Of a stretch of DNA of 64,000 nt, positions 5,150 to 15,242 are shown piece after piece; the stretch's first letter is position 1; the number at the start of each line of letters is the position of its first letter. The stretch comes from Escherichia coli. Lineage in GTDB: Bacteria > Pseudomonadota > Gammaproteobacteria > Enterobacterales > Enterobacteriaceae. The stretch is from assembly GCF_044647545.1 (NCBI RefSeq), contig NZ_CP172818.1. One strand, 5' to 3'. The notes beneath the pieces are model-generated. The model was not told the DNA's origin and made no database searches. It saw nothing but the letters and a program-made list of their open reading frames with translations. A program made the translations under genes and the position numbers.

Positions 5150-7684
5150 ATGGCCGGGAATGACCGCGAGCCAATTGGACGCAAAGGGAAACCGACGCGT
5201 CCGGTCAAACAAAAGGTAAGCCGTCGTCGTTACGAAGATGACGATGATTACGACGATTATGATGACTATGAGGATGAAGAACCGATGCCGCGCAAAGGTA
5301 AGGGCAAAGGCAAAGGGCGTAAGCCTCGTGGCAAACGCGGCTGGCTATGGCTGCTGCTAAAACTGGCTATCGTTTTTGCCGTGCTGATCGCCATTTACGG
5401 CGTTTATCTCGATCAAAAAATTCGCAGCCGTATTGATGGCAAGGTCTGGCAATTGCCCGCGGCAGTTTATGGCCGAATGGTCAACCTTGAGCCAGACATG
5501 ACCATCAGCAAGAACGAGATGGTGAAGCTGCTGGAGGCGACCCAGTATCGTCAGGTGTCGAAAATGACCCGTCCTGGCGAATTTACCGTGCAGGCCAACA
5601 GCATTGAGATGATCCGCCGTCCGTTTGATTTCCCGGACAGTAAAGAAGGGCAGGTGCGTGCACGTCTGACCTTTGATGGCGATCATCTGGCGACGATCGT
5701 CAATATGGAGAACAACCGTCAGTTCGGTTTCTTCCGTCTTGATCCGCGCCTGATCACTATGATCTCTTCACCAAACGGTGAGCAACGTCTGTTTGTGCCG
5801 CGCAGTGGTTTCCCGGATCTGCTGGTGGATACTTTGCTGGCAACAGAAGACCGTCATTTTTACGAGCATGATGGGATCAGTCTCTACTCCATCGGACGTG
5901 CGGTGCTGGCAAACCTGACCGCCGGACGCACGGTGCAGGGGGCGAGTACGCTGACGCAACAGCTGGTGAAAAACCTGTTCCTCTCCAGCGAGCGTTCTTA
6001 CTGGCGTAAAGCGAACGAAGCCTACATGGCGCTGATCATGGACGCGCGTTACAGCAAAGACCGTATTCTTGAGCTGTATATGAACGAGGTGTATCTCGGT
6101 CAGAGCGGCGACAACGAAATCCGCGGCTTCCCGCTGGCGAGCTTGTATTACTTTGGTCGCCCGGTAGAAGAATTGAGCCTCGATCAGCAGGCGCTGTTGG
6201 TGGGTATGGTGAAAGGGGCGTCCATCTACAACCCGTGGCGTAACCCGAAACTGGCGCTGGAGCGACGTAACCTGGTGCTACGTCTGCTGCAACAGCAACA
6301 GATTATTGATCAAGAACTCTATGACATGTTGAGTGCACGTCCGCTGGGTGTTCAGCCGCGCGGTGGGGTGATCTCTCCTCAGCCAGCCTTTATGCAACTG
6401 GTGCGTCAGGAGCTGCAGGCGAAATTAGGCGATAAGGTAAAAGATCTCTCCGGCGTGAAGATCTTCACTACCTTTGACTCGGTGGCCCAGGACGCGGCAG
6501 AAAAAGCCGCCGTGGAAGGCATTCCGGCACTGAAGAAACAGCGTAAGTTGAGCGATCTGGAAACCGCGATTGTGGTCGTCGACCGCTTTAGTGGTGAAGT
6601 TCGTGCGATGGTCGGTGGTTCTGAGCCGCAGTTTGCGGGCTACAACCGTGCGATGCAGGCGCGTCGTTCGATTGGTTCTCTTGCAAAACCAGCGACTTAT
6701 CTGACGGCCTTAAGCCAGCCGAAAATCTATCGCCTGAACACGTGGATTGCCGATGCGCCAATCGCGCTGCGTCAGCCGAATGGCCAGGTCTGGTCACCGC
6801 AGAACGATGACCGTCGTTATAGCGAAAGTGGCAGAGTGATGCTGGTGGATGCGTTGACCCGTTCGATGAACGTGCCGACGGTAAATCTGGGGATGGCGCT
6901 GGGGCTGCCTGCGGTTACGGAGACCTGGATTAAACTGGGCGTACCGAAAGATCAGCTGCATCCGGTTCCGGCGATGCTGCTGGGGGCGTTGAACTTAACG
7001 CCAATCGAAGTGGCGCAGGCATTCCAGACTATCGCCAGCGGCGGTAACCGTGCACCGCTTTCTGCGCTGCGTTCGGTAATTGCGGAAGATGGCAAAGTGC
7101 TGTATCAGAGCTTCCCGCAGGCGGAACGCGCGGTTCCGGCGCAGGCGGCGTATCTGACACTATGGACCATGCAGCAGGTGGTACAACGTGGTACGGGGCG
7201 TCAGCTTGGGGCGAAATACCCGAACCTGCATCTGGCAGGGAAAACAGGGACTACCAACAATAACGTAGATACCTGGTTTGCGGGCATTGACGGCAGCACG
7301 GTGACCATCACCTGGGTAGGCCGTGATAACAACCAGCCGACCAAACTGTATGGAGCCAGCGGGGCAATGTCGATTTATCAGCGTTATCTGGCTAACCAGA
7401 CGCCAACACCGCTGAATCTTGTTCCGCCAGAAGATATTGCAGATATGGGCGTGGACTACGACGGCAACTTTGTTTGCAGCGGTGGCATGCGTGTCTTGCC
7501 GGTCTGGACCAGCGATCCGCAATCGCTGTGCCAGCAGAGTGAGATTCAGCAGCAACCGTCAGGCAATCCGTTTGATCAGTCTTCTCAGCCGCAGCAACAA
7601 CCGCAACAGCAACCTGCTCAGCAAGAGCAGAAAGACAGCGACGGTGTAGCTGGTTGGATCAAGGATATGTTTGGTAGTAATTAA
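5150..7684 (+). CDS. mrcB: penicillin-binding protein 1B (bifunctional glycosyltransferase/transpeptidase), 844 aa
   Basis: [19 protein letters not shown]..., acidic [15 protein letters not shown] tract, TM segment, GT motif [12 protein letters not shown] motifs, Q-rich C-terminus. Confidence 0.95.
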
Positions 7685-7700
7685 CGTCTAAGCGTGACAT

Positions 7701-7725
7701 ACCGGATGGCGAGTTGCCATCCGGT
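7701..7725 (+). terminator. perfect 10-bp inverted repeat hairpin just downstream of mrcB stop
   Basis: accggatggc-gagtt-gccatccggt followed by A/T-rich sequence; lacks a clean U-tract. Confidence 0.4.
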
Positions 7726-7844
7726 AAAATAACATCCCACCTAAAGTATTAACCCTTTCTTTTCATCTGGTTGTTTATTAACCCTTCAGGAACGCTCAGA
7801 TTGCGTACCGCTTGCGAACCCGCCAGCGTTTCGAATATTATCTT

Positions 7845-7880
7845 ATCTTTATAATAATCATTCTCGTTTACGTTATCATT
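7845..7880 (+). promoter_or_regulatory. Fur box / iron-regulated promoter region of fhuA
   Basis: tctttATAATAATCATTctcgtttacgTTATCATTcac contains tandem Fur hexamer-like repeats (ATAATCATT / TTATCATT) overlapping a TATAAT -10 at 7850-7855. Confidence 0.6.
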
Positions 7881-7903
7881 CACTTTACATCAGAGATATA
7901 CCA

Positions 7904-10087
7904 ATGGCGCGTTCCAAAACTGCTCAGCCAAAACACTCACTGCGTAAAATCGCAGTTGTAGTAGCCACAGCGGTTAGCGGCATGTCTGTTTATGCACAGG
8001 CAGCGGTTGAACCGAAAGAAGACACTATCACCGTTACCGCTGCACCTGCGCCGCAAGAAAGCGCATGGGGGCCAGCTGCAACTATTGCGGCGAAGCACTC
8101 TGCTACTGCGACTAAAACGGATACACCAATTGAAAAAACGCCGCAGTCTATTTCGGTTGTGACAAATGAAGAGATGCAGATGCATCAATTTCAGTCTGTA
8201 AAAGAAGCATTAGGTTATACACCTGGCGTTACAGTTAGCAGTCGTGGTGCTTCTAATACATATGATTTTGTTATCATTCGTGGTTTCTCATCTGTTGGCC
8301 TGAATCAAAATAACTACCTTGATGGACTAAAACTTCAGGGCAACTTTTATAACGATGCTGTGATTGATCCTTACATGCTCGAGAGGGTTGAACTGATGCG
8401 TGGGCCGACGTCTGTTCTCTATGGAAAAAGTAATCCTGGTGGGATTATTTCTATGGTGAGTAAGCGCCCGACCACTGACCCCCTGAAAGAAATTCAGTTT
8501 AAAATGGGGACGGATAATCTGTTTCAGACCGGATTCGATTTCAGTGATGCGCTGGATGATAACGGTGAGTTCTCCTACCGTTTGACTGGCCTCGCTCGCT
8601 CAACAAACGAACAGCAGAAAAACTCTGAATCTCAGCGTTATACCATTGCTCCATCATTCTCATGGCGGCCGGACGACAAAACCAATTTAACTTTCCTGTC
8701 CTATTTCCAGAATGAACCAGAAACGGGTTATTACGGTTGGTTGCCGAAAGAGGGGACCGTTGAGCCATTGCCTAATGGTAAGCGTCTACCGACTGACTTC
8801 AATGAAGGTGCGTCGAATAATACATACTCCCGTAACCAGAAAATGGTGGGATATAGTTTTGAACATGGTTTTAATGACACCTTCACCGTGCGTCAGAATC
8901 TGCGTTTCAGTGAAATGAAAACCTCACAGAAAAGTGTTTATGGCCACAGGGATTGCCAGCGATGGTCATACCCTAAACCGCGGGACAGTGGTGGATAATG
9001 AGCGTCTACAAAACTTTAGCGTTGATACCCAACTTGAAAGTAAGTTTGCTACAGGTGACGTCGGGCATACTTTGCTGACAGGGGTAGACTTCATGCGTAT
9101 GCGCAATGATATCAATGCCAGCTTTGGATCTGCACCATCCATCGATCTTTATAACAAATACCATCCTGAATACTTTGCATTTGGTAGCGCAGAGCCATAC
9201 CAGATGAATGAAAGCAAACAAACAGGTATTTATGTTCAGGATCAGGCGGAATGGAATAAATGGGTATTCACTCTGGGGGGGCGCTACGATTGGTCTAAGC
9301 AAGCGACCAAAAACTCTTATACGCCGACTGAAGGTTATATTGAGCGCAATGATCATCAGTTCACCTGGCGCGGTGGTGTAAATTACTTATTCGATAATGG
9401 TATTTCACCTTACTTTAGCTATAGCCAGTCCTTTGAACCGAGTGCTTTCGATCTGGGAACAAGCAACCCGCGCGTTTCCTATAAGCCATCGAAAGGTGAA
9501 CAGTATGAAGCTGGCGTAAAATATGTTCCGAATGATATGCCGGTCGTTGTTACGGGCGCAGTCTATCAATTGACGAAAACAAATAACCTGACAGCAGACC
9601 CAACAAACCCCATTAGCGAAGTCCCGCAGGTGAGATTCGCGCTCGTGGTGTGGAACTTGAAGCAAAAGCGGCGTTAAATGCCAATATTAACTTGACGGCT
9701 TCTTATACCTACACCGATGCGGAATACACCAAAGACACCAATCTCAAAGGTAAAACTCCAGAACAAGTACCGAAGCATATGGCATCTCTCTGGGGGGATT
9801 ATACCTTCAATGAAGGGCCGTTTTCTGGTTTAACATTGGGAACAGGTGGTCGTTTTATTGGTTCCAGCTATGGTGATCCGGCGAACACTTTTAAAGTGGG
9901 TAGCGCAGCTGTAATGGATGCTGTTGTAAAATATGATCTGGCACGCTTTGGTATGGCGGGATCCAGCCTTGCTGTGAACGTCAACAATTTGCTCGATCGT
10001 GAGTATGTTGCCAGTTGCTTCCAGACCTATGGCTGCTTCTGGGGCGCAGAACGTCAGGTCGTTGCAACCGCAACCTTCCGTTTCTAA
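7904..10087 (+). pseudogene. fhuA: ferrichrome outer-membrane transporter FhuA (TonB-dependent receptor), reading frame interrupted by two frameshifts
   Basis: Three consecutive ORFs (7904..8998, 8934..9677, 9650..10087) each translate to FhuA-like sequence; ORF1 and ORF3 share a frame, ORF2 is +1; junctions at ~8945-8957 and ~9629-9630. Confidence 0.85.
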
Positions 10088-10097
10088 TTTCTCTTTT

Positions 10098-10117
10098 GGG
10101 GCACGGATTTCCGTGCC
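10098..10117 (+). other. intra-operon stem-loop between fhuA and fhuC
   Basis: gggcacgg-attt-ccgtgccc perfect 8-bp stem immediately after fhuA stop. Confidence 0.5.
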
Positions 10118-10137
10118 CGTTTCACAAGTTGGCTGTT

Positions 10138-10935
10138 ATGCAGGAATACACGAATCATTCCGATACCACTTTTGCACTGCGTAATATCTCCTTTCGTGTG
10201 CCCGGGCGCACGCTTTTGCATCCGCTGTCGTTAACCTTTCCTGCCGGGAAAGTGACCGGTCTGATTGGTCACAACGGTTCTGGTAAATCCACTCTGCTCA
10301 AAATGCTTGGCCGTCATCAGCCGCCGTCGGAAGGGGAGATTCTTCTTGATGCCCAGCCGCTGGAAAGCTGGAGTAGCAAAGCGTTTGCCCGCAAAGTGGC
10401 TTATTTGCCGCAGCAGCTTCCTCCGGCAGAAGGGATGACGGTGCGTGAACTGGTGGCGATTGGTCGTTACCCGTGGCATGGCGCACTAGGGCGCTTTGGT
10501 GCGGCAGATCGCGAAAAGGTCGAGGAAGCTATCTCGCTGGTTGGCTTAAAACCGCTGGCGCATCGGCTGGTCGATAGTCTCTCTGGCGGCGAACGTCAGC
10601 GGGCGTGGATCGCCATGCTGGTGGCGCAGGATAGCCGTTGTCTGTTGCTCGACGAACCGACCTCGGCGCTGGATATCGCCCACCAGGTTGATGTGCTGGC
10701 GCTGGTGCATCGTTTAAGTCAGGAGCGTGGCCTGACGGTCATTGCCGTGCTGCACGATATCAATATGGCTGCGCGTTACTGTGATTATCTGGTCGCCCTG
10801 CGCGGCGGTGAAATGATTGCTCAGGGAACGCCTGCGGAAATTATGCGCGGCGAAACCCTCGAAATGATTTATGGCATCCCGATGGGTATTTTGCCGCATC
10901 CGGCGGGTGCTGCACCTGTGAGTTTTGTTTATTGA
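10138..10935 (+). CDS. fhuC: ferric hydroxamate ABC transporter ATP-binding protein (265 aa)
   Basis: MQEYTNHSDTTFALRNISFRVPGRTLL; Walker A GHNGSGKST, ABC signature LSGGERQR, Walker B LLLDEPTSALD. Confidence 0.95.
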   Translation: MQEYTNHSDTTFALRNISFRVPGRTLLHPLSLTFPAGKVTGLIGHNGSGKSTLLKMLGRHQPPSEGEILLDAQPLESWSSKAFARKVAYLPQQLPPAEGMTVRELVAIGRYPWHGALGRFGAADREKVEEAISLVGLKPLAHRLVDSLSGGERQRAWIAMLVAQDSRCLLLDEPTSALDIAHQVDVLALVHRLSQERGLTVIAVLHDINMAARYCDYLVALRGGEMIAQGTPAEIMRGETLEMIYGIPMGILPHPAGAAPVSFVY

Positions 10936-11825
10936 TGAGCGGCTTACCTCTTATTTCGCGCCGTCGACTGTTAACGGCGATGGCGCTTTCTCCGTTGTTA
11001 TGGCAGATGAATACCGCCCACGCGGCGGCTATTGATCCCAATCGTATTGTGGCGCTGGAGTGGTTGCCGGTGGAATTACTGCTGGCGCTCGGCATCGTGC
11101 CTTACGGCGTGGCGGATACCATCAACTATCGCCTGTGGGTCAGCGAACCGCCATTGCCGGACTCAGTGATTGACGTTGGTTTGCGTACAGAACCTAACCT
11201 TGAACTGCTGACCGAAATGAAACCATCGTTTATGGTCTGGTCGGCAGGATATGGCCCTTCACCAGAAATGCTGGCACGTATTGCGCCGGGTCGCGGATTT
11301 AACTTCAGTGACGGCAAACAGCCGCTGGCGATGGCGCGTAAATCACTGACGGAAATGGCAGATTTACTTAACCTGCAAAGCGCAGCAGAAACGCATTTAG
11401 CGCACTATGAAGACTTTATCCGCAGCATGAAACCCCGCTTTGTGAAGCGTGGTGCACGCCCGTTATTGCTGACGACACTTATCGATCCGCGCCATATGTT
11501 GGTCTTCGGTCCAAACAGCCTGTTCCAGGAAATTCTTGATGAGTACGGCATCCCAAATGCCTGGCAAGGGGAAACCAACTTTTGGGGCAGTACCGCCGTC
11601 AGTATCGATCGTCTGGCAGCGTATAAAGACGTTGATGTGCTCTGTTTTGATCACGACAACAGCAAAGACATGGATGCGCTAATGGCAACCCCGCTGTGGC
11701 AGGCCATGCCGTTTGTCCGCGCCGGACGCTTTCAGCGCGTTCCGGCGGTCTGGTTCTATGGTGCGACGCTTTCTGCAATGCACTTTGTGCGTATTCTGGA
11801 TAACGCCATCGGAGGTAAAGCGTGA
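10935..11825 (+). CDS. fhuD: ferric hydroxamate periplasmic binding protein (296 aa)
   Basis: MSGLPLISRRRLLTAMALSPLLWQMNTAHAAAIDPNRIVALEW...; ATGA overlap with fhuC stop. Confidence 0.93.
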   Translation: MSGLPLISRRRLLTAMALSPLLWQMNTAHAAAIDPNRIVALEWLPVELLLALGIVPYGVADTINYRLWVSEPPLPDSVIDVGLRTEPNLELLTEMKPSFMVWSAGYGPSPEMLARIAPGRGFNFSDGKQPLAMARKSLTEMADLLNLQSAAETHLAHYEDFIRSMKPRFVKRGARPLLLTTLIDPRHMLVFGPNSLFQEILDEYGIPNAWQGETNFWGSTAVSIDRLAAYKDVDVLCFDHDNSKDMDALMATPLWQAMPFVRAGRFQRVPAVWFYGATLSAMHFVRILDNAIGGKA

Positions 11826-13804
11826 GTAAACGAATTGCGCTTTTTCCGGTGTTATTGCTGGTGCTGCTGGTGGTTGCTGCTGCGGCGTTGACCTGGATGA
11901 ACTTCTCGCAGGCGCTGCCGCGCAGCCAGTGGGCGCAGGCCGCCTGGTCGCCGGATATTGACGTCATCGAGCAGATGATTTTTCACTACAGCTTGTTGCC
12001 GCGTCTGGCGATTTCGCTGCTGGTGGGCGCGGGCCTGGGGATGGTGGGCGTGCTGTTTCAGCAAGTGCTGCGTAACCCGCTGGCGGAACCGACGACGTTG
12101 GGTGTTGCAACAGGCGCGCAACTGGGGATTACCGTCACCACGCTCTGGGCGATCCCAGGTGCTATGGCGAGCCAGTTTGCTGCGCTGGCAGGGGCTTGTG
12201 TTGTTGGCTTAATCGTCTTTGGCGTCGCGTGGGGGAAACGGCTTTCGCCGGTAACGCTGATCCTCGCGGGGCTGGTAGTGAGCCTTTATTGCGGCGCAAT
12301 CAATCAGTTACTGGTTATCTTCCATCATGACCAACTGCAAAGCATGTTCCTGTGGAGCACCGGAACGCTGACGCAAACCGACTGGGGCGGCGTTGAGCGT
12401 TTATGGCCGCAGCTGCTGGGCGGCGTGATGCTGACGTTATTGCTACTTCGCCCGTTAACCCTGATGGGGCTTGATGATGGCGTGGCGCGCAATCTCGGGC
12501 TGGCCTTGTCGCTCGCGCGTCTGGCGGCGTTGTCGCTGGCGATTGTCATCAGTGCGCTGCTGGTGAACGCGGTGGGGATTATCGGCTTTATCGGGTTGTT
12601 CGCGCCGCTGCTGGCAAAAATGCTGGGGGCGCGGCGTCTGCTGCCACGGTTAATGCTGGCGTCGCTGATTGGTGCGTTAATTCTGTGGCTTTCTGATCAA
12701 ATCATCCTCTGGCTGACTCGCGTGTGGATGGAAGTTTCCACCGGTTCGGTCACTGCGTTGATCGGTGCGCCGCTGTTACTGTGGTTGCTGCCGCGTTTAC
12801 GCAGCATTAGCGCGCCGGATATGAAGGTGAACGATCGTGTCGCGACTGAACGCCAACACGTGCTGGCGTTTGCCCTCGCGGGCGGCGTGCTGCTGTTGAT
12901 GGCTGTGGTGGTGGCGCTGTCGTTTGGTCGTGATGCGCACGGCTGGACGTGGGCGAGCGGGGCGTTGCTCGAGGATTTGATGCCCTGGCGCTGGCCGCGA
13001 ATTATGGCGGCGCTGTTTGCTGGCGTCATGCTGGCGGTGGCGGGCTGTATTATTCAGCGGCTGACCGGAAACCCGATGGCAAGCCCGGAAGTGCTGGGGA
13101 TTAGCTCCGGCGCGGCGTTTGGCGTGGTGTTAATGCTGTTTCTGGTGCCGGGTAATGCCTTTGGCTGGCTGTTACCCGCAGGCAGTCTCGGGGCGGCGGT
13201 GACGCTGTTGATCATTATGATCGCCGCCGGACGCGGTGGATTTTCCCCACACCGCATGTTACTGGCGGGGATGGCGTTAAGTACCGCGTTCACGATGCTT
13301 TTGATGATGTTGCAGGCAAGTGGTGACCCGCGAATGGCGCAAGTTCTGACCTGGATTTCCGGTTCGACCTACAACGCGACCGAGGCGCAGGTCTGGCGCA
13401 CGGGAATTGTGATGGTAATTTTGCTGGCGATTACCCCGCTGTGCCGCCGCTGGCTGACCATTTTACCGCTGGGCGGTGATACCGCACGAGCCGTGGGGAT
13501 GGCGCTGACGCCGACGCGAATTGCGCTGCTGCTGTTAGCGGCTTGCCTGACAGCGACTGCGACAATGACCATTGGACCGTTGAGTTTTGTTGGTTTAATG
13601 GCACCGCATATTGCGCGGATGATGGGCTTTCGACGGACGATGCCGCATATTATGATTTCGGCGCTGGTGGGTGGTTTACTGCTGGTGTTCGCTGACTGGT
13701 GTGGGCGGATGGTGCTGTTTCCATTCCAGATCCCAGCGGGGCTGCTGTCGACCTTTATCGGCGCGCCGTATTTTATCTATTTGTTGAGAAAGCAGAGCCG
13801 TTAA
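11822..13804 (+). CDS. fhuB: ferric hydroxamate ABC transporter permease (660 aa, duplicated permease domains)
   Basis: 660-aa hydrophobic ORF, 4-bp overlap with fhuD. Confidence 0.93.
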   Translation: MSKRIALFPVLLLVLLVVAAAALTWMNFSQALPRSQWAQAAWSPDIDVIEQMIFHYSLLPRLAISLLVGAGLGMVGVLFQQVLRNPLAEPTTLGVATGAQLGITVTTLWAIPGAMASQFAALAGACVVGLIVFGVAWGKRLSPVTLILAGLVVSLYCGAINQLLVIFHHDQLQSMFLWSTGTLTQTDWGGVERLWPQLLGGVMLTLLLLRPLTLMGLDDGVARNLGLALSLARLAALSLAIVISALLVNAVGIIGFIGLFAPLLAKMLGARRLLPRLMLASLIGALILWLSDQIILWLTRVWMEVSTGSVTALIGAPLLLWLLPRLRSISAPDMKVNDRVATERQHVLAFALAGGVLLLMAVVVALSFGRDAHGWTWASGALLEDLMPWRWPRIMAALFAGVMLAVAGCIIQRLTGNPMASPEVLGISSGAAFGVVLMLFLVPGNAFGWLLPAGSLGAAVTLLIIMIAAGRGGFSPHRMLLAGMALSTAFTMLLMMLQASGDPRMAQVLTWISGSTYNATEAQVWRTGIVMVILLAITPLCRRWLTILPLGGDTARAVGMALTPTRIALLLLAACLTATATMTIGPLSFVGLMAPHIARMMGFRRTMPHIMISALVGGLLLVFADWCGRMVLFPFQIPAGLLSTFIGAPYFIYLLRKQSR

Positions 13805-13857
13805 TTTTTCCATATAACGGCCCTTAACTCCTGGATGGATAAAGCTTTTACGCGGCA

Positions 13858-13950
13858 ACGGATGCCCGATGCGACGCTGTGGCGTCTTATCGGGCCTACA
13901 AACGGTCCTGATCTGTAGGTCGGATAAGGCGTTTACGCCGCATCCGACAA
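13858..13950. repeat. BIME: two REP palindromic units between convergent fhuB and hemL
   Basis: gcccgatgcgacgctgtggcgtcttatcgggcctac ... gtaggtcggataaggcgtttacgccgcatccgac; matches REP consensus GCCGGATGCGGCG..CTTATCCGGCCTAC. Confidence 0.8.
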
Positions 13951-13961
13951 ACCATGCTGGA

Positions 13962-15242
13962 TCACAACTTCGCAAACACCCGACGTGCAGCATCGATGGT
14001 GTTATTGATATCTTCCATGCTGTGCGCTACAGACATAAAGCCCGCTTCAAACGCTGATGGTGCCAGGTAAACACCTTCATCCAGCATCATATGGAAGAAA
14101 CGCTTAAAGCGTTCCACGTCACAGGCCATTACATCCTGATAGCACGTCACGGACTCGGCGTCGGTAAAGAAAATACCGAACATGCCGCCAACGTGGTTAA
14201 CGACCAGCGGAATTCCGGCTTCTTCTGCCGCTTCCAGCAGACCTTCTGCCAGACGTGTTGTCAGCTCATCCAGCGTTTCGTGAACGCCCGGCTGTGCGAC
14301 TTCATTCAGACAGGCGAAACCGGCCGCCATCGCAATCGGGTTACCGGAAAGCGTACCCGCCTGATAGACCGGACCAGTCGGGGCCAGCGCATCCATTACA
14401 TCACGACGACCACCGAATGCGCCTACCGGCATTCCACCGCCGATGATTTTGCCGAGGCAGGTTAAATCTGGCACTACGCCGTAATAATCCTGTGCGCCAG
14501 CTAGCGCTACGCGGAAACCGGTCATCACTTCATCGATGATCAGCAACGCGCCAAATTCGTCACACAGCGCACGCAGACCTGGCAGGAACTCTGGCAGCGG
14601 CGGAACACAGTTCATATTGCCTGCCACCGGCTCGACGATAATACAGGCAATCTCTTGCGGGTATTGCTCAAACGCGGCGCGTACAGAAGCCAGATCGTTA
14701 TAAGTACAGGTTAAGGTATGTTTGGCGAAATCTGCCGGAACGCCCGGCGAATTTGGCTGGCCTAACGTGAGTGCGCCAGAACCGGCTTTCACCAGCAGGC
14801 AGTCAGCGTGACCGTGGTAACAACCTTCAAATTTAATGATTTTGTCGCGACCGGTAAAACCACGGGCCAGGCGGATGGCGCTCATCGTCGCTTCAGTGCC
14901 GGAGTTCACCATGCGCACCATATCCATGGTCGGGACCAGTTCGGTCACCAGTTGCGCCATTTTCACTTCCATTTCGGTTGGTGCACCAAAGCTTAAACCA
15001 CGCTCGGCGGCTTCAATCACGGCATTGCGGATCGCCGGATGGTTATGGCCCAGCACCATCGGCCCCCAGGAACCGACATAATCGATATAGGCTTTGCCAT
15101 CAACATCGTACAGATAAGCGCCGTCCGCTTTTTCGATAAACAGTGGAGTGCCGCCCACGCCAGTAAAGGCGCGAACAGGGGAGTTCACACCGCCAGGGAT
15201 CAGCTCGCGCGCTGCGCTGTAAAGATTTTCAGACTTACTCAT
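13962..15242 (-). CDS. hemL: glutamate-1-semialdehyde 2,1-aminomutase (426 aa)
   Basis: [26 protein letters not shown]...; PLP aminotransferase class III motifs. Confidence 0.95.

Follow-up and report, generated by a model that had tools for sequence, protein, structure and literature searches.

The fhuA-fhuC spacer and its surroundings

The window, i.e. the whole stretch of 64,000 nucleotides of the Escherichia coli contig NZ_CP172818.1 analysed here, contains in this region, in order, the genes mrcB, fhuA, fhuC, fhuD and fhuB, followed by hemL on the opposite strand. The ferrichrome outer-membrane receptor gene, fhuA, occupies positions 7904-10087 of the + strand and was delimited by translation and by comparison with an intact allele, which showed its frame to be broken by indels; its stop codon, TAA, lies at 10085-10087, as established by sequence and translation. 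On the same strand, annotation and comparison place an intact ABC transporter ATPase gene, fhuC, at 10138-10935 (ATG at 10138-10140), followed by fhuD (10935-11825, +) and fhuB (11822-13804, +).

The spacer between fhuA and fhuC is 50 nt long and contains, on the + strand, a pyrimidine-rich linker of 11 nt (TTTCTCTTTTG, 10088-10098, from the sequence), leading from the stop codon to a stem-loop, and the stretch GTTTCACAAGTTGGCTGTT, which joins the 3' arm to the fhuC ATG. The stem-loop is composed of a 5' arm (GGGCACGG, 10099-10106, +), an ATTT loop (10107-10110, +, read from the sequence) and a 3' arm (CCGTGCCC, 10111-10118, +), both arms being supported by sequence, folding and pattern search. 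It contains 8 perfect pairs, 7 of them G-C, around a loop of 4 nt; 11 nt separate it from the fhuA stop upstream and 19 nt from the fhuC ATG downstream. Downstream of the stem the sequence continues with GTTTCAC (10119-10125, +), a weak U-tract, which reads ATTTCAC in K-12 and GCTTCAC in some E. coli. The original prediction had described here, at 10098-10117, a perfect GC-rich stem of 8 bp with an ATTT loop, located in a 50-nt spacer and lacking a strong U-tract. Sequence and exact pattern search bear out the stem and its loop, the positions of stop codon and ATG confirm the spacer length, and only 3 U are found in the 8 nt 3' of the stem; the coordinates alone need correction, being one base too low, as the exact pattern is found at 10099-10118.

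The ability of the spacer to fold was analyzed against dinucleotide shuffles. The 50-nt RNA folds as one hairpin, with a predicted energy of -17.5 kcal/mol, compared to -10.4 +/- 2.6 for the shuffled sequences (z = -2.76), only 2 out of 200 of them being equally stable. With 151 nt of context the hairpin is also kept, both in the minimum-energy structure and in the centroid. A count over the entire window gave 11 hits for perfect GC-rich hairpins with 8 or more bp, or 9 distinct ones when nested hits are set aside, compared to 1.85 +/- 1.85 hits in shuffled windows. From these figures, the chance expectation of finding such a hairpin in one given 50-nt spacer is about 0.0015. A pattern search allowing 3 mismatches found no second copy of the hairpin sequence in the window; Rfam models gave no match at the site, and only REP copies within 7600-14200 at E <= 1. 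No RefSeq feature covers the 32 nt centred on the hairpin.

The hairpin is followed by the motif AAGTTGG (10126-10132, +), located 5 nt before the fhuC ATG, the columns of which are invariant or near-invariant in a 78-sequence alignment. Across Enterobacteriaceae it is near-invariant, is found 5-6 nt before the ATG and resembles a weak, split Shine-Dalgarno sequence (UAAG..GG). It is a putative Shine-Dalgarno site of fhuC, and may hold FhuC translation low.

Three further structured sites were observed in the neighbourhood. A perfect GC-rich hairpin of 8-9 bp (CCGGATGGCGAGTTGCCATCCGG, 7702-7724), located 18 nt after the mrcB stop and followed by a tail without a U-tract (TAAAATAAC), may be another U-less 3'-end hairpin, ahead of the fhuA promoter. 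At the other end of the operon, where fhuB is followed by the convergent hemL, the REP-derived Rfam family naRNA4 gives weak matches, below threshold, at 13833-13953, which indicate a REP cluster. Inside fhuC, 57 nt after the ATG, a terminator-like hairpin, CGTGTGCCCGGGCGCACG, is followed by CTTTTGC (10195-10212); its stem is broken in many species, which led to its rejection as a conserved element, and it looks like a by-product of the codons for Arg-Val-Pro-Gly-Arg-Thr.

The distribution of the spacer within the species was evaluated on complete E. coli genomes. The 111 nt around it are held by 5423 out of 5426 genomes, and in all but one of these they are found as a single copy with at least 95% identity; the 32 nt centred on the hairpin likewise occur at one place per genome in the 5423. 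The hairpin is identical in K-12 MG1655, where one base differs just past the stem (A for G). In four more divergent E. coli copies the variable sites are the loop (ATTA), two bases following the stem (G/A and T/C) and the upstream pyrimidine run, together with one C-to-T change in the 3' arm, which produces a G·U pair.

A larger context, 9700-10500, is 100% identical to ST648-type genomes; of the 5423 E. coli genomes in which it has a match, 4770 show only 80-90% identity. Within fhuA, the segment at about 8080-10027 has strongly diverged from K-12, with 46-86% identity per 100 nt; identity returns abruptly to at least 97% at 10028, 60 nt short of the stop codon, which places the hairpin within the conserved flank. 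This pattern marks the gene as a mosaic (recombinant) receptor allele, with its downstream boundary just upstream of the hairpin. The translated frame is lost at about codon 355 and regained near codon 580. Compared to the closest intact allele (FDAARGOS_497), fhuA differs at 18 positions, all of them indels, grouped in 7 events, with no substitutions; they are located within 8944-9625 (8944, after 9309, 9455-9461, 9608, 9618 and 9625), several in short runs of C or G, one being a 9-nt deletion. In a near-identical ST648 genome, fhuA is annotated by RefSeq as 'frameshifted'. The broken gene may be a real receptor-loss pseudogene, conferring resistance to phages or colicin, or an assembly error.

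Conservation of the stem-loop and its linkage to fhuA

In order to evaluate conservation, one genome per species was scanned for FhuC, which produced 80 Enterobacteriaceae loci. Loci with a recognisable fhuA end were tabulated, for a total of 82: the window, K-12, 77 scanned species, and Serratia, Erwinia and Ewingella, which were fetched separately. An uninterrupted hairpin of 7-11 bp was found in 81 of them, with stem energies between -11.5 and -22.4 kcal/mol over the whole set. For the 77 scanned loci the spacer ranges between 44 and 56 nt and the stem between 7 and 10 pairs. The position is also maintained, the distance from stop codon to stem being 7-12 nt in 79 out of 82 loci and that from stem to ATG 16-24 nt in 80 (14-24 nt in 81). 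The loop differs between species in both length and sequence (TTCG, TTT, CTTG and others). A CsrA site, suggested by a GGA at the top of the stem, was considered and rejected, the loop not being conserved; according to a CsrA study, much of the CsrA effect on iron genes, including fhuACDB, seems to be indirect.

RNAalifold, run on an unfitted MAFFT alignment, recovered the stem with two compensatory pairs. Where the loop has 3 nt, the innermost pair was wrongly placed by MAFFT, and stems were therefore re-derived sequence by sequence. In an alignment fitted to a covariance model 99.0% of the cells pair, and 5 of the 8 pairs show changes on both sides; these counts depend on the model-fitted alignment, and the unfitted MAFFT/RNAalifold result agrees with them. 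None of 500 column shuffles of the fitted alignment reached the observed pairing values, and sliding the 3' partner by 1-3 columns, as a control, reduced pairing to 26-63%. The fifth pair changes from A-U to G-C in Klebsiella, Kluyvera, Pseudocitrobacter, Yokenella and others; the innermost from G-C to C-G, A-U or U·G in Citrobacter, Leclercia and Superficieibacter; the outermost from G-C to A-U in Yokenella and Trabulsiella. Stems of unrelated sequence are found at the same position in Cedecea sulfonylureivorans (GGATGCGGCG/CGCCGCATCC) and in Serratia marcescens (CCGGGGCGGCG/CGTCGCCCCGG), and the hairpin is also kept in Erwinia and Ewingella.

Compensatory substitutions beyond those expected from relatedness, as required of a conserved structured RNA, are thus present. 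They argue that the hairpin is real and maintained by selection across enteric bacteria; on these comparative data, there is no doubt that it is more than a chance fold. One-sided changes which keep the pair are, without exception, G·U or U·G on the + strand. As each of them corresponds to an A·C mismatch on the other strand, the selected structure is one of the sense RNA, and not of the DNA or of an antisense RNA.

Stems with an internal mismatch were observed in three loci only. In Enterobacter sp. BIGb0383 (L037, 2900-3000) fhuA is deleted, and a Fur-box promoter directly precedes the decayed stem. In Kosakonia arachidis (L078, 2700-3000) fhuA is reduced to a short remnant and the stem is again decayed. 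In the third, Enterobacter sp. R1(2018) (L079, 2868-3000), fhuA is intact and the spacer reaches 133 nt; a U·U mismatch interrupts the original stem, upstream of which this spacer holds a further hairpin, AG/CT-rich, AAAGAGGGAAAGCTGCTTTTCCTTCTTT. No hairpin precedes fhuC in Symbiopectobacterium (L090, 2880-3000), which has no fhuA. The presence of the hairpin thus goes with that of fhuA. These exceptions are few and run in one direction, and point to a hairpin which serves the fhuA-fhuC junction, and not fhuC alone. In L037, L078 and L090, where fhuA was lost, fhuCDB has been kept behind a Fur-box promoter.

The tail of the hairpin and the available transcript data

The stem is of the size expected for intrinsic terminators (about 5-14 bp, GC-rich, with a loop of 3-8 nt), and the tail in the window, GUUUCACA, with 3 U out of 8, is below the about 5 or more U in 8 found in their U-tracts. 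The E. coli copy thus corresponds to a sub-threshold intrinsic terminator and, on account of its tail, was not filed among the canonical ones. A simple terminator scan, which needs 5 T out of 8, gives no call at the hairpin. A discriminant of the d'Aubenton-Carafa type, combining hairpin and U-tract, scored -12.9 for E. coli and passed 53 of the 82 loci as terminators; used here with ViennaRNA energies, it is to be taken as heuristic only.

Across loci, the number of U in the 8 nt 3' of the stem ranges between 0 and 7. It reaches 7 in Enterobacter (e.g. UUUUUAUU), Leclercia, Pluralibacter and Superficieibacter, falls to 4 in Citrobacter and Salmonella and to 3 in E. coli, and is 1-2 in Klebsiella, Buttiauxella and Cedecea and 0-1 in Serratia and Erwinia. 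As the U-tract is essentially absent from the last five genera, and as GCUUCAC is carried by some E. coli, intrinsic termination is not a function shared by the whole clade; by this comparison, the stem is the conserved part, and the predicted strength of intrinsic termination is lineage-specific.

No promoter-like site was found on the + strand within 9700-10138 and, with only 19 nt between stem and ATG, any fhuC transcript must cross the hairpin. In the 80 nt 3' of the stem the C/G ratio is 1.27-1.35, a weak bias when compared to the 1.05 found just upstream.

Transcript concentrations and half-lives for K-12, grown in glucose chemostats at four growth rates, are available from Table S2 of Esquerré et al. 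2015 (PMC4421995). For fhuA, mRNA amounts to 4582, 6658, 11234 and 12866 AU, with half-lives of 2.23, 1.59, 1.31 and 1.20 min; for fhuC, to 909, 1404, 2995 and 3785 AU (3.62, 2.28, 1.81 and 1.59 min); for fhuD, to 154, 328, 531 and 855 AU (10.2, 5.1, 4.6 and 3.3 min); for fhuB, to 285, 592, 1191 and 1289 AU (6.6, 4.3, 3.2 and 2.9 min). In these arrays fhuA mRNA is therefore 3.4-5.0 times as abundant as that of fhuC, 15-30 times as that of fhuD and 9-16 times as that of fhuB, array intensities being only roughly comparable between genes. With 1.2-2.2 min, compared to 1.6-3.6 min for fhuC, fhuA mRNA has the shorter half-life, so that stability alone does not account for the 3.4-5-fold excess; when concentrations are divided by half-lives, synthesis downstream of fhuA appears reduced 4.5-8-fold (PMC4421995 values). 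The comparison of half-lives is weak, as in the same data half-life falls when abundance rises across genes, and run-off in the presence of rifampicin may inflate the distal values, a point which is ours and not made in that paper. We infer that the step-down is located at the hairpin; the drop from fhuA to fhuC could also arise inside fhuC, e.g. by the action of Rho on a poorly translated fhuC.

Under microaerobic conditions log2 changes of -3.84, -2.87, -2.45 and -2.01 were reported for fhuA, fhuC, fhuD and fhuB, respectively, and the repression of fhuACDB was ascribed to Fur by the authors (PMC8910356). As the four genes respond together, they are under shared control, the downstream ones being reached by read-through.

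A Northern analysis by Maes et al. (PMC5389530) revealed a 3' fragment of fhuA, of about 700 nt, which accumulates only when poly(A) polymerase is absent. Since it was seen with a probe for the 3' part of fhuA, its end must be near the fhuA-fhuC junction, and the need for poly(A) polymerase in its removal is what is predicted for a 3' end capped by a hairpin. In the same Table S2 a 5' end is given at 654 nt upstream of fhuC, which, if it belongs to the same RNA, would fit a fragment ending at the hairpin. Among published 3'-end data, fhuA is not listed in the available supplements of Adams 2021, TERMITe 2025 or SMRT-Cappable-seq, and the tables of two papers list neither fhuA nor fhuC; the expression of fhuA is weak in iron-replete media, and the lack of an entry is not to be read as absence of a 3' end.

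Possible functions and comparison with known systems

Taken together, the data make it probable that the hairpin provides the 3' end of a transcript containing fhuA only and allows partial passage into fhuCDB, acting as a leaky attenuator which also caps the fhuA RNA. The GC-rich stem would form just behind the polymerase; together with a short run of U, which is (G/A)UUU in E. coli and reaches 7 U in Enterobacter and Leclercia, it would release some of the complexes. The ribosome ending fhuA translation would overlap a stem located 7-12 nt after the stop codon, and by suppressing termination would make the site leaky. According to Li et al. 2015 (PMC4824070), a terminator 8-17 nt after a stop codon is almost fully repressible by the terminating ribosome, and full efficiency is recovered only beyond about 30 nt; by analogy, the conserved spacing would keep even the U-rich versions leaky. 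Transcripts ending at or beyond the stem would be trimmed back and shielded by it from 3'-5' exonucleases, and the net result would be more mRNA for the receptor than for the transporter. The 3' ends themselves could also be made further downstream and be trimmed back to the hairpin.

The original prediction had proposed a partial terminator, or an RNA-stability element, setting the fhuA:fhuCDB ratio. It is supported in part: an mRNA structure under selection and tied to fhuA is present, with a 3.4-5-fold drop in mRNA and read-through into the downstream genes. That polymerase stops at the hairpin is less certain, the E. coli tail, (G/A)UUUCAC, being below classical terminator criteria, and the half-lives oppose stabilisation as the main cause.

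Alternatively, the hairpin may be purely a barrier to 3' exonucleases: polymerase would not stop there, the RNA would be cut, or terminated by Rho, within fhuC, and would be trimmed to the stem, which then protects the fhuA mRNA, in the manner of U-less stem-loops ending Rho-dependent transcripts or of REP elements in malE-malF. Conservation of the stem in front of tails ranging from 0 to 7 U speaks for such a role, as do the class of stable U-less stem-loops which define and protect 3' ends, described by Dar and Sorek, and the stabilisation, in the pcnB mutant, of the 3' fragment of fhuA, which fits a hairpin-capped RNA (PMC5389530); the weak Shine-Dalgarno-like motif of fhuC could, in addition, expose this gene to Rho. 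Yet the half-life of fhuA mRNA in K-12 is shorter than those of fhuC, fhuD and fhuB, no marked rut-like region is apparent downstream, where C/G is only 1.27-1.35, and 53 of the 82 relatives have a terminator-grade U-tract. As a complete explanation it is rather unlikely: since fhuA mRNA exceeds that of fhuC without a longer half-life, a leaky attenuator which caps the RNA is favoured over a pure stabiliser.

The leaky attenuator could itself be gated by ribosomes, termination taking place only when no ribosome closely trails the polymerase to the end of fhuA. This extension, drawn by analogy, is tentative, and on balance we regard it as unlikely. It builds on the location of the stem 7-12 nt past the fhuA stop in nearly all species, which would place termination under the control of the trailing ribosome. 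If gating were true, transcription of fhuCDB would report on completed translation of fhuA, and strains with a frameshifted fhuA, as in the window, would auto-silence the useless transporter genes through unrepressed termination and Rho polarity.

A translational role, by which the hairpin would keep ribosomes ending on fhuA from re-initiating at fhuC or scanning into it, or would serve as a structural platform next to the weak fhuC ribosome binding site, would set protein and not RNA ratios. It agrees with the distance of 16-24 nt between stem and ATG in 80 of the 82 loci and with the conserved AAGTTGG located between them, and the disappearance of the hairpin where there is no upstream fhuA is also expected of uncoupling; but the ratio differs already at the RNA level, predicted folds leave the Shine-Dalgarno-like motif and the start codon free, and direct support was not found, which makes such a role quite improbable. 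A palindrome acting at the DNA level, either as a cruciform or as the operator of a dimeric regulator, could account for a perfect inverted repeat, but is highly improbable for a site where bases change with complementarity kept, two genera have wholly different stems, the loop is free to vary in length and sequence, and one-sided changes, G·U on the + strand, would give A·C on the other strand, a mismatch there as well as in the DNA. That the hairpin is a chance inverted repeat, of which about 2 GC-rich ones of 8 bp per 64 kb occur in shuffled sequence, or a member of a dispersed family such as REP, is hardly credible and is refuted by the comparative data, given its conservation with covariation in three Enterobacterales families, its single copy per genome in 5423 E. 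coli genomes, and the lack of an Rfam match at the site, the REP copies after fhuB being detected.

A leaky attenuator at this junction would provide a concrete cis element for a long-assumed trait, the production of far more receptor than inner-membrane transporter from a single promoter under Fur control. Phages T1, T5 and phi80 also use FhuA as their receptor, as do colicin M, albomycin and microcin J25, so that the receptor-to-transporter ratio affects susceptibility to phages and antibiotics. The series found in relatives, from U-less to 7 U out of 8, constitutes a natural set on which the contribution of the U-tract to an intercistronic hairpin can be followed. In a full-text literature search, from which the 1986 fhuA sequence paper was missing, no paper describing the fhuA-fhuC hairpin was found; the 1986 paper may mention a dyad after fhuA.

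Four known systems may be compared. Leaky intrinsic terminators internal to operons share with the fhu hairpin an 8-bp GC-rich stem with a 4-nt loop, in sense orientation, after a highly expressed first cistron; downstream genes are reached only by read-through, and 53 of the 82 relatives have a true U-tract. They differ in that the E. coli tail, (G/A)UUU followed by CAC, is below the classical threshold, and in that the U-tract is absent in several genera. The protective stem-loops of Dar and Sorek 2018 are alike in being stable and in having no U-rich stretch next to the stem, a definition which covers the E. coli hairpin, and a block to PNPase and RNase II would be expected here too; however, members of that class lie at the ends of operons and are directly followed by a rut site, whereas the fhu stem is intercistronic, with a translated gene 19 nt further on and a weak C/G bias.

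Among the ribosome-repressed terminators of Li et al. 2015 (PMC4824070), the distance of 7-12 nt from stop codon to stem, found in 79 of the 82 loci, falls in the range of almost full to partial repression of tR2; those data come from a synthetic reporter with a strong phage terminator, and would apply to fhuA by analogy. As to location within the operon, the fhu hairpin is comparable to the REP element of malE-malF, since in both cases a stem-loop separates the gene for a highly expressed envelope protein from low-level membrane and ATPase transporter genes of one operon. The malE-malF element was reportedly described by Newbury et al. in 1987 as an intercistronic REP stabiliser. REP is a dispersed family, whereas the fhu hairpin does not match the REP model and occurs at one place per genome, where REP/BIME elements have many dispersed copies; in addition, fhuA mRNA is not the more stable segment in K-12. 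Otherwise an ordinary operon-internal stem-loop, the fhuA-fhuC hairpin thus appears to act like an operon-internal partial terminator and 3' stabiliser, an element of a known kind.
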